From Candidatus Micrarchaeota archaeon (GTDB lineage: Archaea; Micrarchaeota; Micrarchaeia; Micrarchaeales; CABMGC01), in contig JAGWGN010000001.1 of NCBI GenBank assembly GCA_028867335.1, positions 22,910-86,909 on the forward strand: a stretch of 64,000 nucleotides of DNA, read 5' to 3'. This document shows, piece after piece, positions 1 through 53,941 of this stretch (positions within the stretch are counted from its first letter, which is position 1; each line of letters begins with the position of its first letter). The notes beneath the pieces are model-generated. The model did no database searches. It saw only the letters and a program-made list of their open reading frames with translations, and had not been told where the DNA came from. The translations under genes were made by a program, and so were the position numbers.

Positions 1-783
1 GATCTCCTTCTTCCCCAAAAGCCAAAAGACTGCGGCGTCGGCACCGGCGTCTATTGCGGCCTCCGCCGCGATGCTTGCGTGGGTTGTCGCAGGGCCGTAG
101 AGGAGCAGATGGCTGCCAACTATCTCCTTTGTCGCGGCGCATACCTCATTGAGCGATTCTAGCCTGCTAAATGCCGACACGCGCGGGCCGAATTTCTCAA
201 GGAACTGCGAATATCCCATTCCGCTGCTATGAAGCAGCTCTGAGATCTGCTTGAACGTCAGAGCATGCATGTTGTGGAAGTTTGCGGAATCCGCGACGAT
301 CCCGTTTAGCAGGGCAATCGACGCATCAACGCCTATCTTCATCCCCAGGCTGGAGAGGATCTGACAGATTAGGCTTGAGGTGGAGTTGTACCCAGGGTCG
401 CTGAAGACCATCGGCTTGCTCTCGTCGGTCTTGCCGAGCTCGTGGTGGTCAATGAAGAGAACCTGCTTCTTCATCTTCTTTATTGCTCCGGAAAAGTTTC
501 CTGCCGCCTCGGGAACGCTTGCGTCGACCACGATGATCCCGAATATGTCCTTTGGAACCTTGCCGATGATCTTCGGGGGGCTAGAGAGGCTCTCGATGAC
601 CCTCTTTGAGCTGTTGGTTATCAGATCAGGCATCGCGATTACGGAGTTTGAGAGATATGATTGGAGGGCGATTGCAGAACCGATGCTGTCGCGGTCGCCT
701 ATGGAATGGAAAGTTATGAGGAACTTTTCCTCCTTGTTAAGTATCAGAAAATTCAGCAGTTCGTTGAAGCTAATCTTCATCAT
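1..783 (-). CDS. DHH-family phosphoesterase (NrnA/RecJ-like), C-terminus runs off the window start
   Basis: My own translation of the minus strand from the ATG at 783 gives MMKISFNELLNFL...HSIGDRDSIGSA (DxD motif)...VLFIDHHE (DHH motif). The frame stays open to position 1. It is missing from the ORF track because it is truncated by the window edge. Confidence 0.7.
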   Translation of the reverse strand, partial: MMKISFNELLNFLILNKEEKFLITFHSIGDRDSIGSAIALQSYLSNSVIAMPDLITNSSKRVIESLSSPPKIIGKVPKDIFGIIVVDASVPEAAGNFSGAIKKMKKQVLFIDHHELGKTDESKPMVFSDPGYNSTSSLICQILSSLGMKIGVDASIALLNGIVADSANFHNMHALTFKQISELLHSSGMGYSQFLEKFGPRVSAFSRLESLNEVCAATKEIVGSHLLLYGPATTHASIAAEAAIDAGADAAVFWLLGKKEI

Positions 784-789
784 CAAATT

Positions 790-1149
790 TCACTGTTGCA
801 TCTTGCTAGATAGCGCCGTGATCTCCTCCCTGAGCCTCTTCTCCTTCGCCTTGAGCTCGTTGAGCTGCTTGGTCGTGGACTGCATCCTTACCTCTCCGGA
901 ATCCTTCTTCTCATCGATATTCTTGAGTGCGGTCTCCTTGCTCGTCTCGACTATCACGCCGCCTATGGTTACGTACACCTTGCCTGTCGCCTTTGCGATC
1001 TCCTCCTTGGCGCTGTCCAGCTCGCTTTTTTGGACGGACAGCTGGTCGACCTGCATGGAGTAGGCACGGATCTGCTCCTGGATCATCTGGTAGTCCCTTA
1101 GTATCTTCTCCACGTCCTGCGGCGAGGGTGTTGTAGCTGAATCTGCCAT
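790..1149 (-). CDS. pfdB: prefoldin beta subunit
   Basis: About 119 aa with coiled-coil / beta-hairpin / coiled-coil layout (ILRDYQMIQEQIRAYSMQVDQL...GKVYVTIGGVIVETSKE...LNELKAKEKRLREEI). The likely start is the ATG at 1149 (MADSATT); the ORF track extends to 1161. Confidence 0.8.
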   Translation of the reverse strand: MADSATTPSPQDVEKILRDYQMIQEQIRAYSMQVDQLSVQKSELDSAKEEIAKATGKVYVTIGGVIVETSKETALKNIDEKKDSGEVRMQSTTKQLNELKAKEKRLREEITALSSKMQQ

Positions 1150-1195
1150 AATATCACGCAATTATTGGGAGGGAAAGCAATATACTTCTATCCCA

Positions 1196-1429
1196 TCAGC
1201 CGCGGCCTGACTCCTCAGCGGTGATCTCGTCGACCTTCACATCCGAGGAGTCGGTGTCCTTGAAGAGGTCCTTGACCAGGTTCTCTATGCCGAACTTCAT
1301 CAGCTTGGCCTGGTACTTGGAGAGGAAGACCTTGTGGCCCGCCACGTCCTTTATTATGACCGCGCCGCTATCATCGACCGTGACAAAGATGGTCTCCTTG
1401 GAATCATGAACTTTGTAGTACTTTGGCAT
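1196..1429 (-). CDS. hypothetical small protein
   Basis: ORF with no antisense competitor. The ATG at 1429 (MPKYYKVHD...) overlaps the 3' end of the upstream gene. No recognisable motif. Confidence 0.45.
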   Translation of the reverse strand: MPKYYKVHDSKETIFVTVDDSGAVIIKDVAGHKVFLSKYQAKLMKFGIENLVKDLFKDTDSSDVKVDEITAEESGRG

Positions 1430-1790
1430 TTCCCTCACTGCATTCTATCTCTTTGGCGTATTCCTTCCTTTCCGATATCGCACCATCCTTGTCATAGAGG
1501 TAAAGCGTCACCTTAAGCGTGTAGGTGCTTGGATAGACCTCATTGCTTGCGTAAATCTTGACCCTTTTCTCCCGCGGCTGCGCTTTCTGCAGTATGCCTA
1601 TCAGGCTCTTGGCGGTGAGCAGGCTCTTATCCGGTGCAAGGGATAGGGGGTGTGGGACCTCGTAGACACACTCCACCCAGTAGGGCTCTGCATCTAAAGT
1701 GGCGACGGAGAGCTTTAGCTCAATTTCGTTGTACGTAAACGCTCTTAGCCTATCGGAATTTAGCGCTAAAGCGACGGTTATTTCTGGCAT
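1404..1790 (-). CDS. hypothetical protein
   Basis: 128-aa ORF with normal composition and a TATA-like CGATAAATTTATT upstream on the minus strand. No family recognised. Confidence 0.5.
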   Translation of the reverse strand: MPEITVALALNSDRLRAFTYNEIELKLSVATLDAEPYWVECVYEVPHPLSLAPDKSLLTAKSLIGILQKAQPREKRVKIYASNEVYPSTYTLKVTLYLYDKDGAISERKEYAKEIECSEGNAKVLQSS

Positions 1791-1834
1791 AGCTTGTAGT
1801 ATGGAGTATAGGATAATAAATTTATCGACAGGGA

Positions 1835-2341
1835 TTATCCCTGGGCGGACCTGACGTTTTCCGTGAGGATCTTGAGCGCCTCGGATTTGATCTCGTTGAT
1901 TTTATCGTCTGTCAGGCCCGGGCCGTTGAAATAAGGCGGCGCTTTTATCAGAGGATACACTTTCCTGGTGAACAGCTTCCTGAGTTTGGTCGCGATCTCC
2001 GGACTTATGGCATCAGGTTCGTCTCCAAAGACTTTCGCGGAGTGCGTTATTTTAAGGTGCGCGACCAGTTTTTCCGTGGTTATTCTGCCGAACTCTTTTA
2101 TTTGGTTGTGCACTGCCCAATCTGGGAGCTTGATGGGGGCGTTGCTGGTAACCTCAAGCACCTTATACTGCGCCATTGAGAATTTAGACGCTATTATCTC
2201 GGCTTCTTTTTCTAGAAAAGGGGCAAGGTCCTGTGGGCGCCTTGCGAGCCCCTTAAGCTTTGACGCCTTACTATTTGCCTCCGACCTTATCAGCATTGTT
2301 TCTCCAGGAGGTATCGGCTTTACTCTGGTCGCGGGGTCCAT
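1835..2341 (-). CDS. hypothetical protein
   Basis: 168-aa ORF with TATA CTTTATAAATACC about 35 nt upstream on the minus strand. No family recognised. Confidence 0.55.
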   Translation of the reverse strand: MDPATRVKPIPPGETMLIRSEANSKASKLKGLARRPQDLAPFLEKEAEIIASKFSMAQYKVLEVTSNAPIKLPDWAVHNQIKEFGRITTEKLVAHLKITHSAKVFGDEPDAISPEIATKLRKLFTRKVYPLIKAPPYFNGPGLTDDKINEIKSEALKILTENVRSAQG

Positions 2342-2600
2342 CTTGTCGCCTTTAACAAGTATTCTTTATAGGGTATTTATAAAGATTTTCTACGAATCCG
2401 TTTTGTGTATTTATTCATCAATTTTGGCAACTTTTTACACAGAAATCTTCTTTTTTACACAGAATTTTTCTGTGCCCGCTTTTTCTTTCAAAATTTTGAG
2501 GGGTGAGAAAATAGAATTCGGAAACTATATGGAAATTTTAATGTATCTATCTATGATAACTGGATTTTTGTTATTATTATTCGAATTACACCTAATATGA

Positions 2601-3749
2601 TTACAATGTAGGGAATGAAGGTATCTGTAATGAATGATAAACAAAAACTTGTAGAATAAATAATATCAAAACCAAAATGATAAATGCTATAGTAATAATA
2701 TTCGTTAGTCTTAATGTGCGAAATTCTCTTCCCATTCTATTAAGTGTAAAACCTTTATTAATATCATAGAGTTTATTTGTATCGAATTCCTTAGTGTGTC
2801 CCTCCCTAAGATTCTGGTAAGTTTCTTTTAATTTATGATAATTATTTAAAAATAATTGGGGTTGTGATAAATTGGTAAGAGCGATTTGAGTTTCATCAAA
2901 AACCTTAGAAAATTTATTAAAATCCTCCCCATTTGCCGACCTAATAAATCTATCAAATGTTGCTAAATTATTAACAAATTCTCTAACTCCAAATTTTTCC
3001 TCGATTGTTAATCCATTCAATTTTAAACTTCTAATAAAAAGTTTAGTGAGCCATAAATCTATCTGTATTTTATTTCTTTTCGGAATAGGGATAAATTCTG
3101 TTTTCTCACGTCTGAAAGTTTTGCCAGCTTCTATGCCTTCAGTAATAAATATGCTAAGCATCTTTTCAGTGGATAATGAATAATAAAGTCTTGAAAAAAG
3201 ATAAAAACCGATAAACATAAAACTAACCGTTCCAGCGAAAAAGAAAATACCATATAAAAGATCTAAAATAAGAAAAATGAGTGGAGTTTGATGATACAAA
3301 TTAGGATAATAAGAATAAATTATGGGTATAATCCACACTATTGCAAATGATAATATGGTAAGGAAAAATAACGGAATGGCTTTATAGTAAGACAGACGCC
3401 AGTTTTCACAATATCTTATTTCATCTTCAACAGGAACTGAATCCCTAAATCTCGGTAAATTTTTATAAATCTGATGAAAATGTTCAAAAGAAAAGTATCT
3501 TTTGAGTTCGATATTATTTTCCTTTTTAAAAAGGAAGTATGCTATTCTCAGTGCTACTATCCCTAAAACAAACATAACTATTAATTCGTAGACAAATCCC
3601 CAAAATATGCCTCCATTTTCTATTATCCCCCCAAGAACAAATATGCCATCTGAAAGATAGATTAAGTAAATTATGAATAAAGATAAAATCGAAATTGCCA
3701 TTATTAGAAGGAAAATTCCGAAAAACCATTCCCAAGTCACATTTTTCAT
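2601..3749 (-). CDS. multi-pass membrane protein of unknown function (passenger gene downstream of the transposase)
   Basis: 382 aa. It has N-terminal and central hydrophobic helices, a ~150-aa soluble charged region and a C-terminal TM helix. It is very AT-rich and starts 23 bp downstream of the transposase stop on the same strand. Confidence 0.6.
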   Translation of the reverse strand: MKNVTWEWFFGIFLLIMAISILSLFIIYLIYLSDGIFVLGGIIENGGIFWGFVYELIVMFVLGIVALRIAYFLFKKENNIELKRYFSFEHFHQIYKNLPRFRDSVPVEDEIRYCENWRLSYYKAIPLFFLTILSFAIVWIIPIIYSYYPNLYHQTPLIFLILDLLYGIFFFAGTVSFMFIGFYLFSRLYYSLSTEKMLSIFITEGIEAGKTFRREKTEFIPIPKRNKIQIDLWLTKLFIRSLKLNGLTIEEKFGVREFVNNLATFDRFIRSANGEDFNKFSKVFDETQIALTNLSQPQLFLNNYHKLKETYQNLREGHTKEFDTNKLYDINKGFTLNRMGREFRTLRLTNIITIAFIILVLILFILQVFVYHSLQIPSFPTL

Positions 3750-3772
3750 GATATTAATATCGTATAAAATAA

Positions 3773-4930
3773 CTAAAAACTTTGGTTTGTCTCATTATTT
3801 ACGACTACAATATTATGGCACAAAACCTTCAGCAACAACTCGTTAATCTGTGCTGTCTTTGTCTTGCTCTTTAGCATATCGCTAAACTTTGCCTTCAACA
3901 TAAAAAACGTGCTTTCCACATTACTTCTCTTGTGGTAATGCGCCATAAAATCCTCTCTATTTAGCATAAAGTAGTGATACATCTTCTTCCACGCAATACT
4001 ACCCACTGAGGACTTGACGGCGTTTCTTTTGAAAGGTATGAAGGGAATCCCTCCAACCTCTCTTACTTTTGTTAGGTTATCACGTGAGCTATACGCCAAA
4101 TCCGCAGATACTTCAGATATGTTGAACCCATTCTCTGAAGTCATCTTAACAAGTGGGATAAATTGCTGGCTATCGCTTGAGTATCCCTCGTTAACTTCTA
4201 CTGCCGTTATGATATTGGTCTTAACGCCAGTCATTATGTGGCATTTAATCCAATTGTGCTTTTTGATTAGGTTATGCTTCATCTTGCAATATTCTGAAAA
4301 CTTTGTAGTTCTAAATCCACTACTATCAATCGCAAAGTCCTTTTCTACTGCTTTCATAGGCAAAGCAGTAATTTGGATCAACTTACTAAGAATAGGTGTT
4401 AGTTCCTCTTTCTGCATAAAGTGTCCAACAGAAGCAAAACAGGGAGTATGCTCAACATATCCCTTTTCCTTTGCCGTCCTCAAATCACTCATAAATCGCC
4501 TTAGCGAGAACTGAGTATAAACCTTCAGAGCAGAGGCAAAAAGCAAGTCTTTATTAGCTATCTTAGGACGACCTTTGCAATTTGGCTGTTCTTCTGCCTC
4601 TTCGCACAGGTCATTAAGCATTTTCATAAAGCTGTCTTTCTCATTGATTTGACACTTATCATAGGTAGCCCAAGTTTGCTGATACGTCATACGTTTGCTC
4701 TGTGTGCCCTGTGGCGTTTCTATCTCTGCCTTAAGCATATACCTTACAGCGTAGGCGTGTTTGCAGGTGGTCTTGTGCAACTGACTATCGGCGCAATCAC
4801 AAACAAACTCTTGATTTACAAGATACTTCTTTCGCCCATCTGTTTGTGAAGGCACAATCCAACCAAACTTGTCTTTCTGTATCTGCAAAGTCTTCGCAAT
4901 TTCATATCCTTTTTCTTGTCTTCGTTCCAT
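3773..4930 (-). CDS. IS4/IS5-superfamily DDE transposase with N-terminal SWIM-type zinc finger
   Basis: The sequence CDCADSQLHKTTCKHAYAV fits a SWIM finger (CxC..CxH). DDE candidates are FAIDSSGF and SADLAYSS. The sequence YHKRSNVESTFFMLK fits the Y-2-R-3-E-6-K (YREK) signature of IS4/IS5 transposases. Confidence 0.85.
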   Translation of the reverse strand: MERRQEKGYEIAKTLQIQKDKFGWIVPSQTDGRKKYLVNQEFVCDCADSQLHKTTCKHAYAVRYMLKAEIETPQGTQSKRMTYQQTWATYDKCQINEKDSFMKMLNDLCEEAEEQPNCKGRPKIANKDLLFASALKVYTQFSLRRFMSDLRTAKEKGYVEHTPCFASVGHFMQKEELTPILSKLIQITALPMKAVEKDFAIDSSGFRTTKFSEYCKMKHNLIKKHNWIKCHIMTGVKTNIITAVEVNEGYSSDSQQFIPLVKMTSENGFNISEVSADLAYSSRDNLTKVREVGGIPFIPFKRNAVKSSVGSIAWKKMYHYFMLNREDFMAHYHKRSNVESTFFMLKAKFSDMLKSKTKTAQINELLLKVLCHNIVVVNNETNQSF

Positions 4931-4948
4931 TTTATCCCTTTATTCATC

Positions 4949-5013
4949 ATACGTATAGTATGTATTATGAATAAGCAGATATATAAAGGTATAGGTATAA
5001 TACGTATAGTATG
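4949..5013. promoter_or_regulatory. two 14-bp direct repeats ATACGTATAGTATG (each containing the palindrome ATACGTAT), 51 bp apart, in the divergent transposase/RHH intergenic region
   Basis: Exact copies lie at 4949-4962 and 5000-5013. The second copy overlaps the RHH start codon. This layout is typical of an operator for a ribbon-helix-helix repressor. Confidence 0.4.
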
Positions 5014-5175
5014 GGAAAGGCAAAGAAGATAGAGAAGGAAACGGCAATACCTAAGACAATAACGCTTATGCCAAAACACCAACGTTTTATCGAGGCAAAG
5101 AGCATTAATCTATCTCGTTTCGTTCAGAAAGCATTAGACGATGAGATAGAAGCGCAGGGTTGGAGAGAGGAATAA
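5011..5175 (+). CDS. small ribbon-helix-helix (CopG/Arc-like) DNA-binding protein
   Basis: My own translation (54 aa, below the track cutoff) is MGKAKKIEKETAIPKTITLMPKHQRFIEAKSINLSRFVQKALDDEIEAQGWREE. It has a beta-strand (TITLMP) followed by two helices. Its stop is 1 nt before the next ATG. Confidence 0.55.
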   Translation: MGKAKKIEKETAIPKTITLMPKHQRFIEAKSINLSRFVQKALDDEIEAQGWREE

Positions 5176-5176
5176 T

Positions 5177-5377
5177 ATGTGCAATAGTTGTGCTACTGGA
5201 AAAATGAAAGTTGGATGGCTATCTACACATTATGAAGAAGGTAAAATTTGCGAATGTAAATGTGCACCTAATCATATAATAAAAAAGATGGAAACTTATT
5301 ACGCAACAGACTCTGAAAAATCTTCGAAAGAAGAAGTTTTAGTATGTCTTAGTTGTAAACACCACTTAAGGATATAA
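5177..5377 (+). CDS. Cys-rich zinc-ribbon-like small protein
   Basis: 66 aa with CNSC...CECKC...CLSCKHH cysteine pairs. It is translationally coupled to the RHH gene. Confidence 0.5.
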   Translation: MCNSCATGKMKVGWLSTHYEEGKICECKCAPNHIIKKMETYYATDSEKSSKEEVLVCLSCKHHLRI

Positions 5378-5517
5378 TTTTACACAACAAGGCGATTAAA
5401 TACACAAAATGAAGTTAATACACAAAGCTCTACGAATCGTTTCCATCGTAGAATCAGGGATATAAGGGATTTATATAATTTAACGGAACTACAAGATAGA
5501 AATTGCACTGTGACTCC

Positions 5518-5982
5518 ATGGAATTAAACGAGGCCTCACTTATAGAGTCGGAGATAATGCTCAGAAAGTTGCGGCTTACAAACGAGGTGCTGGAGACCCG
5601 CCGCTCGATAGCGAGATGGCTTGCGCTCTCGCTTGGGATAATAAACCCGGGGGAGTCGAGGCTCAGCGCGGTCGCTGTGCTTGACGCCATGATAAACTTC
5701 CAGTTCGTGAAGGGGACCGACCCCGCATACGCGGACCTTGAAAAGTACATCAACGACAACTGGGAGGCCATGAACGAAAAGACTCTTAGATATCACCTTT
5801 TAAAATTGAAGAATATGGGACTGATAGAGAACAGCAAGGGCAAGTTCTACTTCAAGCCCCCGAGCTTCGGGGACCGCTTTGACGCGAACGCGTGGGCATC
5901 GAAGCTCTTCGAGGAGGAGCACAAGCAGATAGCGGTGAAGATCAGCGAGGCGATCAGGGAGCTAAAGAATAAGCAGCAGTGA
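5518..5982 (+). CDS. putative winged-helix DNA-binding protein
   Basis: The ATG at 5518 lies ~30-40 nt downstream of TATA GGATTTATATAATTT. The sequence TLRYHLLKLKNMGLIENSKGKFYF resembles a wHTH recognition helix plus wing. The stop overlaps the start of the next gene. Confidence 0.5.
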   Translation: MELNEASLIESEIMLRKLRLTNEVLETRRSIARWLALSLGIINPGESRLSAVAVLDAMINFQFVKGTDPAYADLEKYINDNWEAMNEKTLRYHLLKLKNMGLIENSKGKFYFKPPSFGDRFDANAWASKLFEEEHKQIAVKISEAIRELKNKQQ

Positions 5983-7622
5983 TTTTTATGAACAAGGAAT
6001 GGATTTTCTGGGCAGTGCTTGTGGCGGTGATAGCGATAGGGGCGCTCTACTTCAAGTTCTACAGCACCCAGACGATCTCGATGTTCGTCTCGATAAATGG
6101 CAGCGCGGCGGCTGGCACCACTTACCCGTTCGAGAAGGTCATCCTTCCGGTAACAGTGCAGAACACCGGAAGCGGGGCGATAACCAACCTCGTCTTCGAC
6201 GTTAAGAATAACGGCAACTCGAGCGTCGCATACCAGCTCAGCATACCTGCCGGTAAAAGCGTCACGCTCCAGTACAATTTTACTCCTTCGAAGGCTGGAA
6301 CCTACAACATCTCGGTTGTTGCGGACCCTGCGCAGGTGTACAACATAGCCGACAGGCAGAACTCGATGAACGCTACAGCAGTGGTGATTGCAAACTCCTC
6401 TGCGGGCGCGGCTTACTCGCTCATACCTCGAGGAAACTTCTCCGATTACAGCCAAAACAACTACGGAAGGGGGGGATTCGTAGCGTCAAGCTTCCTCTTC
6501 GGGTCGTATGGCCTTGATGCGTTTGCGCCTGTCGGGAACAGGGACACGTTCGTGACATCGCTGCTCAACATCACCCAGCTTTACATAAGGAATGTCTCTG
6601 TGGCGTCAGCTTCCTACAGGAACGGGACCTCCTCGTACTCGGTTTGGATACAGGGGTACCTGAGCCCGAGCGTCATGGGCGTGGCGGCATCCGGAAGGGG
6701 ATACAAGGTCTCAAACTACACGATAAATGGAACGGCGGTGACTGTCGCCAACATGACAAACACGACGACGCTCTGCAGCTGGTATCAGGGAGGCTGGATA
6801 AAGAGCGTGGTGTATAGCAGCGCAAGCGGCACATGCCTTGGAATATACAAGGGCTCGATAAGGACCCTAAACAAATCGCCAGCGTACGGGAACGCGACAT
6901 ATTTTGCGAAAGTGAACCCCCTAAACAGCACTCTGCTCGGAAATTTCAGCGGCAAGTTCAACGGAAAGATCTTCTACTCTACGCTTCTGCAGAACGGGGC
7001 GACTTTCGTCGCGCCGCAGATCTCAATAAACAGCTCCGAGGATTCCAGGTGCCTGGGTGTTATAAGCAGGCAGAATGGGACAAGCTTCTGCAGCGTCTTT
7101 GTTGTCCCGCTCAACGGCTTCATAACGGGGATTGCTCTGATAAGGACGACAGCTTACATAGGGAACTACAACCTCAGCGTCTACACCCTTGTGAACAACA
7201 GCCGCGTGTTCCAGTCAATACCTACCGCGTTCTCGATAATAAACAAGTTCAACATCAGCGGAACCTCTGCAAGCTTCAGCTCCGGATTTAGCAACACGTG
7301 CCAGTTCAACTTGAGCTTCCCGTGCAGCAACGCTAATTTCTACAACGGGACCCTTGTGCTTCGGGTAACAAACAAGCTAAACCAGAGCCTGCACCTCAAC
7401 TCACTTAGCTGCTACTCAATGGGCAACCCGGTGCCAACAAAGCTAAACCAGAGCCTGCCGGCTCTTGGTTCTATGAACCTCTCAGCAAGCTGCTATAGCC
7501 TAGGGAAGCCGCTTGGTGGGATACCGCTTAACCTGCAGCTAAGCCTGCGCCTAAACTACACGGCCGCCAACGTCACCAAGACAGTTGCAGGGAATGCTAC
7601 GATCAACATCTTCTCTTCTTGA
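5979..7622 (+). CDS. membrane-anchored extracellular protein, CARDB-like N-terminal domain, extremely rich in N-glycosylation sequons
   Basis: It has an N-terminal TM/signal anchor (WIFWAVLVAVIAIGALYF). The segment ITNLVFDVKNNGNSSVAYQLSIPAGKSVTLQYNFTPSKAGTYNISVVADP is CARDB-like. I count about 30 N-x-S/T sequons by eye. Confidence 0.6.
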   Translation: MIFMNKEWIFWAVLVAVIAIGALYFKFYSTQTISMFVSINGSAAAGTTYPFEKVILPVTVQNTGSGAITNLVFDVKNNGNSSVAYQLSIPAGKSVTLQYNFTPSKAGTYNISVVADPAQVYNIADRQNSMNATAVVIANSSAGAAYSLIPRGNFSDYSQNNYGRGGFVASSFLFGSYGLDAFAPVGNRDTFVTSLLNITQLYIRNVSVASASYRNGTSSYSVWIQGYLSPSVMGVAASGRGYKVSNYTINGTAVTVANMTNTTTLCSWYQGGWIKSVVYSSASGTCLGIYKGSIRTLNKSPAYGNATYFAKVNPLNSTLLGNFSGKFNGKIFYSTLLQNGATFVAPQISINSSEDSRCLGVISRQNGTSFCSVFVVPLNGFITGIALIRTTAYIGNYNLSVYTLVNNSRVFQSIPTAFSIINKFNISGTSASFSSGFSNTCQFNLSFPCSNANFYNGTLVLRVTNKLNQSLHLNSLSCYSMGNPVPTKLNQSLPALGSMNLSASCYSLGKPLGGIPLNLQLSLRLNYTAANVTKTVAGNATINIFSS

Positions 7623-10411
7623 CAGTGGTTATTTTGAGCGAAGTATACGAGGCCTTCCTAGAGGAATTTAAGCAGTTCACAAACGTACAGGAGAGGGCGA
7701 TCAGGGTCGTAGAATCTGGAGACAACTGCATCATCACGGCGGCGACAGGAAGCGGAAAGACCGAAGCGGCGCTGCTCCCTGTTCTCAGCAACATCGTGAA
7801 GGACAGCCGGAGGCAGGGGGTCAGCGCACTTTACGTCACCCCCCTGCGGGCGCTAAACAGGGATTTGCTAAAGAGGCTCCGCAAGCTCTGCTCCAAGTTC
7901 GGGGTGCGGGTGGAGGTCAGGCATGGGGACACGACCCAGTCCGAGAGGACAAAGCAGTCCAAGAATCCTCCCGACATACTGATAACCACGCCCGAGACGA
8001 TACAGAGCATCTTCCTCACAGGGAACCTGAGAAACTCGATGCGAAACCTGAAGGCGGTGATAGTCGACGAGCTCCATGAGCTCTACTACAACAAGCGCGG
8101 GGCGCAGTTCTCTGTCGCGCTGGAGCGCCTAGTTGAGCTTGCTGGGGAATTCCAGAGGATAGGGATAAGCGCAACTGTCGGGGATATAGACACCGCAGCC
8201 TATTTTCTGTGCGCGCAGAGGCCGTGCAGCGTGGTCGACGCGCGCGGGAACAAGGAGTTCGTGATCAGCATTGTTATGCCCAGAAACCTTGAGAAGGAAT
8301 ATGCGGAGTTCTCCGAAAAATTCGGCCTTGACAAGCAGGCTCTGGCAAGAATAGAGTACATGGCAGATAGGATAAGGGGGTCTCAGGCGACACTGCTCTT
8401 TGCAAACACAAGGCAGGTGGTGGAGTCGCTTGGCAATAAGCTCATACACTTTGACGGGGTGGCGGATTTTGGGGGGATAGGGGTTCACCACGGATCGCTC
8501 GACAAGGAGGAGCGAATCGGCACGGAGAATGCGTTCAAGGAGGGCAAGATAAGGTCGATAATCGCGACAAGCTCGCTTGAGCTCGGCATCGACATAGGGA
8601 ACATTGACCTTGTGATCCAGTACGGCTCGCCGAGGCAGGTGACAAGGCTTGTGCAGCGGGTGGGAAGGGCGGGCCACAGTGAGAAGAGGGCATCGCATGG
8701 GGACATAGTGGTCGCAAGCGTGATGGACGCGCTGGAATCCGCGGCGATAGTCTCCCTCAACAAAGTGGGGATGCTCGAGAAAAGGGAGATACAGGAGAAT
8801 GCGCTTGACGTTCTTGTCAACCAGCTCAGCTCGGTCGCGCTTGAATACAAGAAACTCGACCCCGAATTCTTCTACAACATGATAAAGCGAAGCTCGTGCT
8901 ACGCAAAACTTGAGAGGAAAAGCTTTGAGGAGGCGCTTGCTTTCGCAAGCGAGCAGCGGCTAATAAGAAACGGAAAAGAGATGACCACGGCGAGCAGGAC
9001 AAGGCGCTATGTGATAGAGAAAATAAGCGTGATACCCGACTCGACGCGGTTTGTGGTGAAAAACATCTCCACAAACAAGATAATCTCGAGCCTTGACGAG
9101 AATTTTGTCTACAACAACATCGAGGAGGGAACGACATTTGTGACAAAGGGCCTGGTCTGGAGGGTTGTGAGCATCGATGAGAAGGTGATCTTTGTGGAGC
9201 CCAGCGTCGAGATTGATGCTGCGATACCGGACTGGGAGGGTGAGGACATCCCTGTATCGCATGCTGTTGCAAGCACCGCGTTTAGCTTCTTTGGAAAGCA
9301 TCGCCTGGAAGATTTAAAGTCGCTCCTGAGCCCCGGCGCCTACTCGGCGGTCCTGGCAACCATCGAGGAACAGGAGAAGCACTTCCCAATAGACGAGGAT
9401 GCGATCCACATCGAGGAAACGGACGAGAGGGCGATAATATACGTGCCGCTCGGAAAGCTTGCAAACGATTTCTTCGGAAAGATAATAAGCGCGCTCGTCT
9501 CTGCAAGCGTCGGGAGGAAGGTTCTGACAAAGTCCACGCCGTACGCAATCATCTTGGAGTATGAGGGCGCAGGGAAGCCCGCAGACATGAAGAAGGTACT
9601 AGAGGCATTCAAGCAGTACAAGCTTGAGAACCTGCTGCAGAGCAGCGAGTTCGTCTCCAGCTTCGACCTGTTCCGCTACAAGTTTGTGCAGAACGCAAAG
9701 CTCTTCGGGGTGATTGAGCGCAAGGCTACGATAACGCGCAGCACGGCGCTGAAGCTGATCGGCTTCTACAGGGATTCGCAGATATTCGAGGAGACAGTGC
9801 GGGACCTCGTGAGGAACTACTTCGACATTGAGAGTGTCAGGGAGCTGCAGAGGAAGCTGATCGACAAGCAGACAAAGGTGTTTGTCTACAAGAGCTTTGG
9901 GTCGGCGATTGCAAATGAGGTACTGCGCTCTGCGTATTTCTACAGGGAGCTGATGAACCCGCTTGCGCCGAGCAGCGAGGAGATAGACCAGTTTGCGCAG
10001 GGGCTGATGAGCAAGAGCGCGGAGCTCATCTGCACCTACTGCGGCTTTAGGTTCAAGCGAAAGCTCTCCGAGATAAAGGAGCATGAGAGGATAAGGTGCG
10101 TCTCGTGCAGGAGCCCGATGGTTGCGGTGTACGAGGAGGGATACGAACAGGGGATAGAGAGGCGAAAGAACAGCGAACGCTTTATGAAGAAGAGCGAGGT
10201 TGCGCTCTACGCGGAGGCGATAGCCAACGCAAGCCTTGTCGAGGCGTACGGGCTTCGCGCCCTGATTGCACTTGCGACCTACGGGGTGGGAAACAAGACG
10301 GCGGCCAGGATACTCAAATGGCTCAGGAAGGACACGAAGCTTTTCCTGATAGACCTGATAAACGCGCAGAAGCAGTTCATAAAGAACAAGAAGTACTGGG
10401 CGGACAGATAG
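7619..10411 (+). CDS. lhr: Lhr-like large superfamily-2 (DEAD/DEAH) helicase
   Basis: Walker A is TAATGSGKTEAA, motif II is VDELHE, and motif VI is QRVGRAGH. There is a long C-terminal Lhr-type extension ending in a zinc ribbon (CTYCG...CVSCRS). Total length is 930 aa. Confidence 0.85.
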   Translation: MTVVILSEVYEAFLEEFKQFTNVQERAIRVVESGDNCIITAATGSGKTEAALLPVLSNIVKDSRRQGVSALYVTPLRALNRDLLKRLRKLCSKFGVRVEVRHGDTTQSERTKQSKNPPDILITTPETIQSIFLTGNLRNSMRNLKAVIVDELHELYYNKRGAQFSVALERLVELAGEFQRIGISATVGDIDTAAYFLCAQRPCSVVDARGNKEFVISIVMPRNLEKEYAEFSEKFGLDKQALARIEYMADRIRGSQATLLFANTRQVVESLGNKLIHFDGVADFGGIGVHHGSLDKEERIGTENAFKEGKIRSIIATSSLELGIDIGNIDLVIQYGSPRQVTRLVQRVGRAGHSEKRASHGDIVVASVMDALESAAIVSLNKVGMLEKREIQENALDVLVNQLSSVALEYKKLDPEFFYNMIKRSSCYAKLERKSFEEALAFASEQRLIRNGKEMTTASRTRRYVIEKISVIPDSTRFVVKNISTNKIISSLDENFVYNNIEEGTTFVTKGLVWRVVSIDEKVIFVEPSVEIDAAIPDWEGEDIPVSHAVASTAFSFFGKHRLEDLKSLLSPGAYSAVLATIEEQEKHFPIDEDAIHIEETDERAIIYVPLGKLANDFFGKIISALVSASVGRKVLTKSTPYAIILEYEGAGKPADMKKVLEAFKQYKLENLLQSSEFVSSFDLFRYKFVQNAKLFGVIERKATITRSTALKLIGFYRDSQIFEETVRDLVRNYFDIESVRELQRKLIDKQTKVFVYKSFGSAIANEVLRSAYFYRELMNPLAPSSEEIDQFAQGLMSKSAELICTYCGFRFKRKLSEIKEHERIRCVSCRSPMVAVYEEGYEQGIERRKNSERFMKKSEVALYAEAIANASLVEAYGLRALIALATYGVGNKTAARILKWLRKDTKLFLIDLINAQKQFIKNKKYWADR

Positions 10412-51941: not shown

Positions 51942-53063
51942 TTACTCGTCCGATTCAGAGACCTGTCTCATCGCTAAAAATGCTTCCTTAAGTGGTTGGC
52001 TTACAGCTGAGTCAGATTCTTTCAAAACAAGTTCCTGATACCTGTTCAGAAAATCCATTCTTACCTCATTGAATAAATGTAGAAAGTGTCTAAGAAATCC
52101 TATACAATCAAGTATAGCGATTTCAGTTCCTCCTGTTTTTTCATAAAAACTATTTGCATATTCTACAACTTTTCTATCTATTTTTTCTGTTGTTATAAAG
52201 ATGTAATTATGAATTCTAGGTTTAACTCTTATAATTTTACTAAGTGCTGCATCTACATCATCGTTTGTTACCTCTTTCATTTTCATTTCATAAGTGGTGA
52301 CTATGTTTTTTCTACCGGTAAAACATATTTCAACATCTCCGATAGACTTTGTCTGCAGATCTGCAGCATTATGTGAATTTAATGGAAGTGGAATTTTACC
52401 CAATTTTAAACTTGCAGATTGGTATGCCGCAGCAACAATTAGCACTGGTAGCCTGCTAGAATTTTTAGAGGCCAGATGCTGACCTATAAGAGTAATTATT
52501 GCTTCTGATGAAAGAGGCAAGGAACCCTTACTCCTACCTAAACTTTCAAGTAGTTTTTTCATCCTATCTCCTTTTTCATTTTTGAATATTATAAGTTGTC
52601 TGATTACTTCGATAAGTACATCTTCTGAATTAACCACATTTCTTTGAACTGCATCCAAAACATCTATTGTGTAAATGTAAACCTCTCTCGGCCTTCCTAC
52701 CATATCAATTTTTTTATTTAATGCCTGATCTCTATTTCTTAATGCTGGGGTCAAAAACGCAGTAGTAGAATTACAAGGTAATCCATATTCGTTTATAAAA
52801 TGAGTTATATACTGTTCATCATATGTCCTTCCTGAAAAGGAGTCTTTATCCCCAATCTCCGTATAAGGTTTAAGGATGTTAAATTTGGGATTATCTATCT
52901 TAGCTAATAAACACGAAAGTAAAAGTCTTGCACCCGCTCTATTCGACCCACATTTACAAACATATTCTATTTTATCAAGTATCTTTCTGTCCACAATTAT
53001 TGGTTTTAGAATATTTTTTACGGCGAGCCTCATACTATCTTTTAATATCCTCTCTGGTTTCAT
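51942..53063 (-). CDS. putative type II restriction endonuclease (PD-(D/E)XK candidate)
   Basis: It lies directly downstream of the Dam-like MTase with a 5-nt gap. It is AT-rich. The segment SIGDVEICFTGRKNIVTTYEMKMK fits D...ExK. The specific family is not recognised. Confidence 0.5.
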   Translation of the reverse strand: MKPERILKDSMRLAVKNILKPIIVDRKILDKIEYVCKCGSNRAGARLLLSCLLAKIDNPKFNILKPYTEIGDKDSFSGRTYDEQYITHFINEYGLPCNSTTAFLTPALRNRDQALNKKIDMVGRPREVYIYTIDVLDAVQRNVVNSEDVLIEVIRQLIIFKNEKGDRMKKLLESLGRSKGSLPLSSEAIITLIGQHLASKNSSRLPVLIVAAAYQSASLKLGKIPLPLNSHNAADLQTKSIGDVEICFTGRKNIVTTYEMKMKEVTNDDVDAALSKIIRVKPRIHNYIFITTEKIDRKVVEYANSFYEKTGGTEIAILDCIGFLRHFLHLFNEVRMDFLNRYQELVLKESDSAVSQPLKEAFLAMRQVSESDE

Positions 53064-53068
53064 CTAAT

Positions 53069-53941
53069 TCACTGAAGATTAACTTGTTTAGGAAGTTTAT
53101 AATTTATCCACAAAAATTCTCTTCTGGTATCTTTTGTAGAATGAATAGTTTTTAAAGGCCCAACTATTTTAGTCCATTTAGGTTCTGGATAAAGCTTATT
53201 CATTATTTCACAATCATAATTGGATATCGCTACCCTTCCTTCTACCTTATTTAAAACCTCTGCAAGCTCAATATGATCTTTATCAGTCATTTCTGCTCCG
53301 TACGCATTTTTGTCTCCACGAGTCGAATGGACATATGGCGGATCGCAATAAAATAATGTATTTGGTGAATCGTATAGCGAAATTATTTCAATAGCGTTTC
53401 GATTTTCAATTTGAACCCTTAGTAACCTATCAGCTATCTCAGGTAATGCCTCAACCGCACCAAGCCATCTACTAACTGACCCACTCATACCTGCCCGTGA
53501 GGTATTTTTGCAATTTGCCCATCTCCCCAATGTAGCTTTTTGTGCAAGTCCTGTTCTTACTTGTCTTGCACGAACATAAAATCTACGAGCGCGTTCTAAA
53601 TCTCCTAAGTTTTTTTCTAAATTACAAGCATGCAAAAATTCTTCGCGGGAAAAAGGCGTAAGACCTATTGCTTCTATCAATTCTGCTTTTTGTGTTCTTA
53701 GCACTTTAAAAAAATTAACTACTTCCCCATCAATATCATTGTAGGTTTCTATTGGAGAAGGTTTACGATTAAGCAAAATTGCTGCTGATCCTCCAAAAGG
53801 TTCACAAAAATGATACGATTCTGGTAAATATGGTAGTAACCAGTCCAGATGTGAATATTTGCCCCCATACCAACCAAATGCTATTAATTTTTTCTTATGC
53901 CCTCTAACTACTGTTTGAACTTTTGTTTTAGTACTTAGCAT
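53069..53941 (-). CDS. D12-class N6-adenine DNA methyltransferase (Dam-like)
   Basis: The sequences FGWYGGKYSHLDWLLPYLP and FCEPFGGSAAI (SAM binding) are present. YCDPPY is the catalytic DPPY motif. Confidence 0.85.
   Translation of the reverse strand: MLSTKTKVQTVVRGHKKKLIAFGWYGGKYSHLDWLLPYLPESYHFCEPFGGSAAILLNRKPSPIETYNDIDGEVVNFFKVLRTQKAELIEAIGLTPFSREEFLHACNLEKNLGDLERARRFYVRARQVRTGLAQKATLGRWANCKNTSRAGMSGSVSRWLGAVEALPEIADRLLRVQIENRNAIEIISLYDSPNTLFYCDPPYVHSTRGDKNAYGAEMTDKDHIELAEVLNKVEGRVAISNYDCEIMNKLYPEPKWTKIVGPLKTIHSTKDTRREFLWINYKLPKQVNLQ

Follow-up and report, generated by a model that had tools for sequence, protein, structure and literature searches.

What is the AT-rich block of about 3 kb that separates two divergently transcribed host genes in a 64,000-nucleotide stretch of Candidatus Micrarchaeota DNA (assembly GCA_028867335.1, contig JAGWGN010000001.1, positions 22,910 to 86,909 of the forward strand; hereafter the window), and how did it come to lie between them? 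An earlier reading of the sequence (the original prediction) had described it as an insertion bounded by a 10-bp target-site-like duplication and carrying passenger genes. Our analysis indicates, with high confidence, that the block is an intact, recently acquired and apparently single-copy DDE transposon, a member of an archaeal, DPANN-rich IS5 lineage that is closest to the IS903 group. The transposon runs from position 2399 to 5429 (3,031 bp, 33.4% GC) with its transposase gene on the minus strand, and its limits follow from GC content, from comparison with an empty site, and from an end rule shared with related elements. The original prediction is confirmed, with corrections to the length of the duplication and to the status of one gene.

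Evidence of insertion comes from a sister Micrarchaeota metagenome-assembled genome (MAG; L092, GCA_028867095.1, contig JAGWHA010000003.1), which encodes a homologue 87% identical to the 168-aa protein of the left flank. Gene order is the same as in the window: Lhr helicase, a CARDB protein and the 154-aa gene, then the 168-aa gene, a 128-aa gene and prefoldin. The divergent 168-aa and 154-aa genes of the sister genome are 136 bp apart, with no insert and a single TCTACTAATC, and this distance is exactly the 3,176-bp spacer of the window minus 3,031 + 9 bp. In the empty site the sequence is ...TATTTATAAAGATTTTCTACTAATCGTTTTG..., where the repeat occurs once, and the reconstructed empty junction is ...AAAGATTTTCTACGAATCGTTTCCATCG.... 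Window positions 2-2406 and 5429-10409 are aligned by BLAST to adjoining stretches of the sister contig, at 84-88% nucleotide identity in the flanks. The two blocks overlap by 17 bp because the single repeat in the sister genome is followed by GTTTTGT, which is similar to the element's own tip, CGTTTTGT; this likeness may be due to chance, or it may hint at a preference for end-like targets. The original prediction had called for a search for an empty site in related genomes, and the sister genome carries one rather than the same 3 kb at the same locus.

The boundary repeats, inner ends, second inward copy and TTTT(T)ACACA motifs described earlier were all found where they had been placed. A 10-bp repeat, TCTACGAATC, is present at 2389-2398 and 5429-5438. 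The length of the target duplication is best read as 9 bp and not the 10 bp first proposed, because the one remaining base that matches is already the tip of the terminal repeat AGCTTTG. Under the family rule (an end of RGC followed by YTTG, and a 9-bp target-site duplication, or TSD), the TSD is CTACGAATC, with a left copy at 2390-2398 that occurs once in the empty site (as CTACTAATC) and a right copy at 5430-5438. The left inner end (2399-2413) reads CGTTTTGTGTATTTA and the right inner end, in reverse complement, (A)GCTTTGTGTATTAA.

The transposase-distal terminal inverted repeat, CGTTTTGTGTATTTATTC, occupies 2399-2416 on the plus strand, and the transposase-proximal end (5378-5429, minus strand) consists of three same-orientation copies of the terminal motif, located at 5378-5392, at 5394-5409, and at the terminus itself, 5414-5429 (reverse complement AGCTTTGTGTATTAAC). 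Of the inverted repeats that span the transposase gene, the best pairs 2401-2416 with the second inward copy at 5394-5409 in 15 of 16 positions. TTTT(T)ACACA is found at 2432 and 2452, forming a 20-bp tandem pair, and at 5378. The two tandem 20-bp subterminal units (TTTTTACACAGAA..., 2432-2474, plus strand) have a TGTGTA core that is inverted relative to the terminus, with a hairpin at 2458-2474. The layouts of the two ends are thus unequal, with three same-orientation copies at the proximal end and, within 2399-2474, one terminal and two inverted copies (the hairpin) at the distal end. The same asymmetry, a terminal copy accompanied by an inverted inner copy, is present in the relatives L027 and L005.

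Related elements share these termini. A scan of one genome per species yielded 79 loci, mostly from DPANN and other uncultured archaea and including a few MAGs labelled bacterial. A search based only on a direct repeat with an adjacent inverted repeat found ends of the form (G/A)GCTTTG(T/C) at 31 loci of other genomes, delimiting elements of 2.9-8.4 kb. When the end rule is fixed, such that an element starts with three bases followed by YTTG and is flanked by a 9-bp TSD, the duplication is exact in 28 of 32 elements, the window's included. The terminal repeat of the window element matches a consensus drawn from about 30 TSD-bounded relatives; the original prediction had proposed a search for further copies with the same termini. 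Within the window, the sole match to the family end motif is the proximal end (5416-5429).

Shuffling of the two 61-bp boundary windows produced a direct match of 10 bp or more in 13 of 5,000 trials and an inverted repeat (12/14) in 64 of 5,000. Such statistics alone are suggestive, and the empty site and the family-wide end consensus are the stronger evidence. A block of foreign composition between direct repeats, together with a 10-mer match that is only moderately rare by this measure, would also be expected of a plasmid or virus remnant that an integrase had inserted as an island, with TCTACGAATC as the att core, or of chance repeats in AT-rich DNA. However, no recombinase domain was detected in any open reading frame (ORF), no tRNA or other Rfam family was found in window positions 1800-6000, the repeats are directly flanked by inverted repeats that match the family consensus, and the repeat length equals the 9-bp duplication of the family. 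We give these explanations virtually no credence.

The composition of the block agrees with a foreign origin. Its interior was described earlier as more AT-rich than either side, and GC content is indeed 0.334 inside versus 0.513 and 0.531 in the flanks, making the insert the lowest-GC stretch of 3,031 bp in the window. GC content at third codon positions (GC3) falls into three layers, 0.60-0.76 for the genes of the host, 0.42-0.44 for the transposase gene and the neighbouring gene for a ribbon-helix-helix (RHH)-like protein, and 0.19-0.23 for two passenger genes, which fits a foreign element with passengers of yet another origin.

The transposase is a 385-aa protein encoded at 3773-4930 on the minus strand and was assigned with Pfam, NCBIfam, an alignment of relatives and BLASTP against IS903B. 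It matches DDE_Tnp_1 (PF01609, E 2.8e-19), and the residues D202, D277 and E339, as well as Y332-R335-E339-K346, are invariant in an alignment of 23 relatives. The same alignment shows an invariant N-terminal SWIM motif, CxCx9CxH (C44, C46, C56, H58), although the Pfam match to SWIM is sub-threshold (E 0.0042). The combination of SWIM and DDE(YREK) signatures that had been read from the sequence is thus borne out. In BLASTP the protein is 23% identical to the IS903B transposase (E 9e-14), with D202, D277 and E339 aligned to its D, D and E, and IS903B and ISVa2 are the best annotated relatives among plasmid records. At E < 1e-5 we found 6,279 relatives, which are about 400 aa long and many of which have a precomputed SWIM match; few carry a source name, and those that do include Micrarchaeota, Nanoarchaeota and Nitrosotalea. 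One further locus, L010, is 77-79% identical in DNA to window positions 3792-3985 and 4868-5168, which correspond to the 3' end of the transposase gene and to a segment that takes in the RHH gene, the control region and the beginning of the transposase gene, and is 57% identical over the transposase protein as a whole. This patchwork suggests mosaic recombination between family members.

As far as transposase homology, terminal sequence and the 9-bp duplication indicate, the element is in mechanism and ancestry a member of the IS903 group. Its ends, AGCTTTGTGTATTAAC and CGTTTTGTGTATTTAT, were judged to agree with the GGC start of IS903-group terminal repeats. In IS903B the inverted repeat is GGCTTTGTTGAATAAATC and the direct repeat is 9 bp (PMC10569121), both of which we confirmed in L100. 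Common to the window family and IS903/IS903B are a DDE_Tnp_1 domain with aligned D, D, E and YREK residues, terminal repeats that begin GGCTTTGT (for example GGCTTTGTTGAATAAATAGG in the relative L041 versus GGCTTTGTTGAATAAATC in IS903B), and the 9-bp duplication. The differences are considerable. Apart from the low identity of 23% and a score below the NCBI IS5 cut-off, the window family has an N-terminal SWIM finger, a divergently oriented RHH-like gene and several subterminal repeat copies, resides in archaeal hosts, and shows a one-sided, promoter-adjacent placement in contrast to the palindromic WTTYA-N9-TRAAW target of IS903. Its members are 3-8 kb long with passengers, versus about 1.06 kb and one gene. 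The IS903 group, in the ISfinder description, comprises elements of about 1 kb with a single transposase gene, and the 3,031 bp and four ORFs of the window element depart from it on both counts.

Mutator (MULE) and IS256 transposases also combine a SWIM zinc finger with a DDE transposase, and the window element resembles them in this respect, both by its own Pfam match and by the precomputed matches of its relatives. Its catalytic domain, in contrast, is of the IS4/IS5 type (PF01609) and its SWIM finger is N-terminal. Membership in the MULE or IS256 groups was rejected, as only PF01609 and SWIM were matched.

Two passenger genes lie inside the ends. The larger (2601-3749, minus strand; GC3 0.23) encodes an all-helical, multi-pass membrane protein of 382 aa (P0121) with no match in Pfam, NCBIfam or PADLOC. 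Among 1.84 billion representative proteins, a word-indexed search recovered three relatives and an exhaustive HMMER search recovered ten. An AlphaFold2 model based on a three-sequence alignment has a mean predicted local distance difference test (pLDDT) score of 54.6, which does not suffice for a fold search. In the source record the protein is called "ABC transporter ATP-binding protein"; we rejected the name, since an ABC ATPase domain is absent and neither Pfam nor NCBIfam gives any match, and the label appears to be an annotation error. The smaller passenger (5177-5377, plus strand; GC3 0.19) starts 1 nt after the RHH-like gene and encodes a 66-aa Cys-rich orphan protein (CxxC ... CxC ... 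CxxC). No homologue was found in the fetched loci except in L001, a Logan contig of the same element, where it is 100% identical. Its only Pfam match is a weak, sub-threshold one to SopA_C (E 0.037), and it has none in NCBIfam or PADLOC. PADLOC defence models were matched by neither passenger, nor by the homologue of the membrane protein in L004.

L004 carries the closest transposase among the fetched loci (62% identity). Its gene order is small ORF, RHH gene, transposase gene and membrane-protein gene, all within family ends (GGCTTTGT), and its membrane protein, 36% identical to that of the window, occupies the same slot. Nineteen base pairs of its left flank recur in inverted form 2 kb downstream (9619-9637), a possible trace of a later rearrangement. 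For the window's membrane protein, the nearest homologue (P0122, 49% identical; L083-L091) is encoded elsewhere, adjoining genes for a 277-aa tyrosine recombinase and a DUF8203 protein without a transposase; the membrane gene therefore also travels or resides in another context.

This other context, and the low GC3 of the passengers (0.19-0.23) relative to the core genes (0.42-0.44), could be taken to mean that only a plain insertion sequence (IS) of about 1.7 kb, made up of the RHH and transposase genes, had moved, and that it lies beside a pre-existing AT-rich island whose membrane gene and far repeat are not mobile. The empty site, however, lacks the whole 3,031 bp and not merely the core. 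Moreover, there is no end motif between the transposase and membrane genes, the family-motif match of the window at 5416-5429 having its inverted partner at 2399-2416, while L004 has the transposase-then-membrane order inside its GGCTTTGT ends and every bounded relative is at least 2.9 kb long. A plain insertion sequence is accordingly a most improbable explanation. A composite transposon was also considered and rejected, since there is one transposase gene and neither a second copy of the element nor an internal end motif occurs in the 64-kb window.

The organization of the element is that of a transporter IS (tIS), or unit transposon. A tIS is defined by passenger genes that accompany an IS-type transposase (PMC9330008). 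The window element likewise has an IS-type transposase and passengers inside one pair of inverted repeats. Typical examples of tIS are bacterial and usually carry a regulator, methylase or resistance gene. In contrast, the family described here represents a whole archaeal lineage with two variable cargo slots that are filled mainly with defence genes.

Between the transposase gene and the smaller passenger lies a gene for a 54-aa protein (5011-5175, plus strand) that is a probable RHH DNA-binding protein, as judged by homologues at the loci, weak CcdA matches and its sequence pattern. It is located divergently upstream of the transposase gene in 14 of 74 loci, with identities of up to 85%, and by this conservation it is best regarded as a core accessory gene of the subfamily, not as a passenger. 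The passengers counted by the original prediction are therefore reduced from three to two, the membrane and Cys-rich genes. The 80 bp that separate the two core genes (4931-5010) form a divergent promoter- and operator-like region, identified by repeat search, in whose centre a TATA-like TTTATATA lies between two copies of the direct repeat ATACGTATAGTATG (4946-4962 and 4997-5013). The operator-like repeat CATACTATACGTAT occurs twice in this intergenic region, and L010, L004, L023, L008 and others have a similar arrangement in which element-specific repeats are duplicated within each element. The small protein probably binds the paired ATACGTATAGTATG repeats around the shared TATA, and may thereby repress both its own gene and that of the transposase.

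We infer the course of transposition from IS903 and from DDE chemistry in general. The 385-aa transposase would bind the terminal repeat and the subterminal copies with the TGTGTA core, three per end in different arrangements, excise the element, and join it to a target cut with a 9-bp stagger, repair of which would give the CTACGAATC duplication.

Additional evidence on the state of this copy comes from other assemblies. Logan contigs from two sequencing runs contain an identical 168-aa gene, and both stop exactly at window base 2398, the junction. Assembly graphs built from k-mers break off a flank contig after the last base common to both paths wherever two continuations exist. The stops at 2398 are what coexisting filled and empty alleles would give. 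Look-ups with the right-flank gene, for which there are three alternative starts, and with the next gene gave no record. The only other assembly of the element interior is the Logan contig L001 (window 3568-5386), which stops inside the membrane gene and 43 nt before the element end; this could reflect low coverage or variants.

Could the block instead be an immobilized fossil, a genuine past insertion that survives as a solitary copy with one decayed end? Its distal tip is CGT where the consensus is RGC, it is the single copy in 64 kb, and its 35-nt end has no exact match in JGI metagenomes. However, all four ORFs are intact, all catalytic and zinc-binding residues are conserved, the duplication is perfect, the element is missing from a sister genome at 84-88% nucleotide identity, and in two samples the assembly graphs fork precisely at the junction, as they would if both alleles coexisted. 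Other members also tolerate variant tips (GCC, GAC and AGC). We therefore consider a fossil unlikely, and prefer the view that the transposon is intact and recently acquired.

Several observations nonetheless weigh against that view, or against parts of it. The distal terminus, CGTTTTG, differs from the family's RGCTTTG at positions 1 and 3, and in IS903 the outermost terminal bases matter for catalysis. A contig spanning the empty allele was not retrieved from the samples in which the Logan contigs stop at the junction. Current activity is unproven, because a single copy was observed and the records of an identical transposase come down to two contigs, one from NCBI and one from Logan. The closest relative, L004 (4211-7546), has family ends without a detectable TSD. 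As to classification, the transposase scores 119.3 bits against the curated NCBIfam IS5_2 equivalog model NF033579, below the cut-off of 140, and the other NCBIfam models for IS5, IS4 and IS1182 score far lower. As to the RHH assignment, 7 of 12 members of the 54-aa protein family match CcdA, the best at E 9.4e-4 and all sub-threshold; a PDB profile search with the protein returned spurious matches only; and a single-sequence monomer model, an extended N-terminus followed by one long helix, is uninformative.

Comparison with the relatives shows that this copy is an ordinary member of its family. Its length exceeds that of a plain insertion sequence, as had been pointed out, although this size is normal among relatives (2.9-8.4 kb) and not peculiar to the copy in the window. 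At such lengths the 31 bounded relatives all carry extra genes, and within their TSD-bounded ends the genes other than the core vary. Cargo genes occupy two slots, of which one follows the RHH gene and the other the transposase gene, and are unlike the core in composition. Pfam and PADLOC scans of 81 cargo ORFs found mostly restriction-modification and other defence genes, with many PADLOC restriction-modification matches. These include five classes of DNA methyltransferases, fused enzymes of the Eco57I/MmeI type, the nucleases MamI, Mrr, GmrSD/HNH and Vsr, and a type I specificity subunit, together with ThsB-TIR, AEP-TOTE, HicB, NYN, Schlafen/AlbA_2 with HATPase_c_4, and AAA_14/DUF4143. A further element, L093, has genes for an N6-methylase and a specificity subunit as well as for a PD-(D/E)xK protein.

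Tn7-like and other defence-carrying transposons are a natural comparison for cargo of this kind. The relatives resemble them in that restriction-modification and other conflict systems dominate their cargo. Unlike Tn7-like elements, however, they rely on a single-protein, IS903-like transposase without machinery of the TnsABC type, are much smaller, and show no attachment-site or CRISPR-guided targeting.

Relatives of the transposase, with 40-49% identity, are also encoded on 17 viral or proviral contigs of IMG/VR (L101-L117), where several of the elements are bounded by GGCTTTGC ends and 9-bp duplications. In two loci the flank itself resembles an end. The flank of L031 (approximately 6452-6480) starts, right after the duplication, with another family end, GGCTTTGCACGG, and in the downstream flank of L112 the duplication is followed immediately by CGGCTTTGCTACGCATTC, which is the element's own inverted repeat. 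These arrangements suggest tandem or nested insertions beside existing ends.

The location of the window element, described earlier as lying between two divergent host promoters, is confirmed by TATA boxes outside both TSDs. The promoter of the 168-aa gene (2376-2389, minus strand) comprises the TATA box TTTATAAA at 2376-2383 and, at 2384-2389, AAAATC, which resembles a transcription factor B (TFB) recognition element (BRE). The left TSD abuts AAAATC-TTTATAAA, with the ATG of the gene 35-42 nt beyond, and the same TATA box is present in the empty site of the sister genome. The TATA box of the 154-aa gene is 31 nt from the right TSD. Both core promoters survive because the insertion lies upstream of both boxes. 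A sigma-70 promoter scan performed no better than on shuffled sequence, and the sigma-70 model is not applicable to archaea.

A promoter beside the insertion is typical of the family. We surveyed the 56 outward-facing flanks of the 28 sites with exact TSDs for TATA-like octamers, defined as having at most one mismatch to TTTAWATA. Such an octamer starts at nucleotide 7 past the TSD in 15 flanks, and at offsets 5-11 in 21. The enrichment at offset 7 has p = 4e-30 against the background of the same loci (0.00145 per position) and p = 9e-19 against uniform placement within 60 nt. When two mismatches are allowed, a TATA box lies 5-11 nt beyond the TSD at 25 of the 28 sites, including that of the window. 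The 6-nt spacers in between, GAAAGA, ACAAAG, GAAAAG and similar, resemble the archaeal BRE. With respect to the element, the TATA box is balanced between the two sides (11 versus 11), and this balance, together with its presence in the empty site, rules out that it is part of the element. Two additional elements, L093 and L101, obey the same arrangement, and no TATA box was found beside the sites of six more distant elements on viral contigs. Transfer RNA genes were rejected as an explanation of the sites without an outward ORF. A TSD, a 6-nt BRE-like spacer and a TATA box thus constitute a family-wide site rule.

Two accounts of this rule can be offered. The fixed spacing might reflect a weak preference like that of IS903, met by the BRE (RAAAG) and combined with purifying selection against intragenic insertions. 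The target motif of IS903, WTTYA-N9-TRAAW, places TRAAW directly after the 9-bp duplication (PMC2577343), the spacers here read GAAAG, AAAAG or ACAAAG, and the distant members on viral contigs show no TATA box at their sites. On the other hand, half-sites of only 3-4 nt occur frequently in AT-rich DNA, whereas a TATA box is found at 5-11 in 25 of 28 sites and at exactly 7 in 15 flanks; the signal is one-sided although the IS903 target is palindromic; and it is independent of the variable inner part of the terminal repeats. We rate this account at somewhat short of an even chance.

The other account, which we put forward tentatively, is that SWIM-DDE transposons actively home to archaeal promoters. 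In this case, the BRE/TATA sequence, or its (bent) form bound by TATA-binding protein (TBP) and TFB, would be read, and the element would be inserted at the upstream edge in either orientation. As to the cause of the rule, we lean slightly towards a real component of targeting because the signal is one-sided, very sharp, and extends beyond the IS903 half-site. Integration at a fixed distance from a protein-bound site has precedents. Yeast Ty3 inserts at the start sites of Pol III transcription (PMC6673722), and insertion sequences of the IS1202 group insert 5 bp from the XerC sites of pdif (PMC10132070). The window family, inserting 6 nt upstream of a TATA box, is similar in its fixed spacing and unlike them in that its orientation is random (11 sites each side), there is no evidence here for involvement of TBP or TFB, and its chemistry and family are unrelated to theirs. 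Active homing, if true, would provide a safe landing site in the very compact genomes of DPANN archaea and a carrier by which defence genes pass between archaea and archaeal viruses. It would also represent a prokaryotic counterpart of the Ty3-type targeting of transcription machinery, and the family would be the first lineage of unit transposons with cargo to be described from archaea.

A second low-GC island is present elsewhere in the window (51942-53941; GC 0.33-0.36 versus about 0.5). It encodes a 290-aa adenine methyltransferase of the D12 class (DPPY motif) and an adjacent 373-aa protein, and looks like an acquired restriction-modification pair. The family end motif (GCTTTG) was not found bounding this island.

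A survey of archaeal mobile elements published in 2019 stated that transposons with passenger genes had not been detected in archaea (PMC6563490), and a 2026 census of archaeal insertion sequences mentions neither passenger genes nor the SWIM-DDE type (PMC13343696). In the searchable literature we found no description of a lineage with a SWIM N-terminus, an RHH partner, two slots for defence cargo and insertion at promoter edges, although a named archaeal entry may exist in ISfinder. The family looks like an undescribed archaeal variant of the IS903 group that has an unexpectedly precise relation to archaeal promoters. Its end motif and 9-bp TSD rule enable automatic annotation of such elements, and its insertion sites mark archaeal promoters in genomes for which no transcription data exist. 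The fixed geometry of TSD, 6 nt and TATA box poses the question of how a transposase that works as a single protein locates a promoter's upstream edge in archaea. The family has more than 6,000 transposase relatives, most of them from DPANN or other archaea that are uncultured, and all of its bounded members contain cargo; it provides a simple vehicle that moves defence genes among tiny, host-dependent archaea and possibly, given the 17 relatives on IMG/VR contigs, their viruses.

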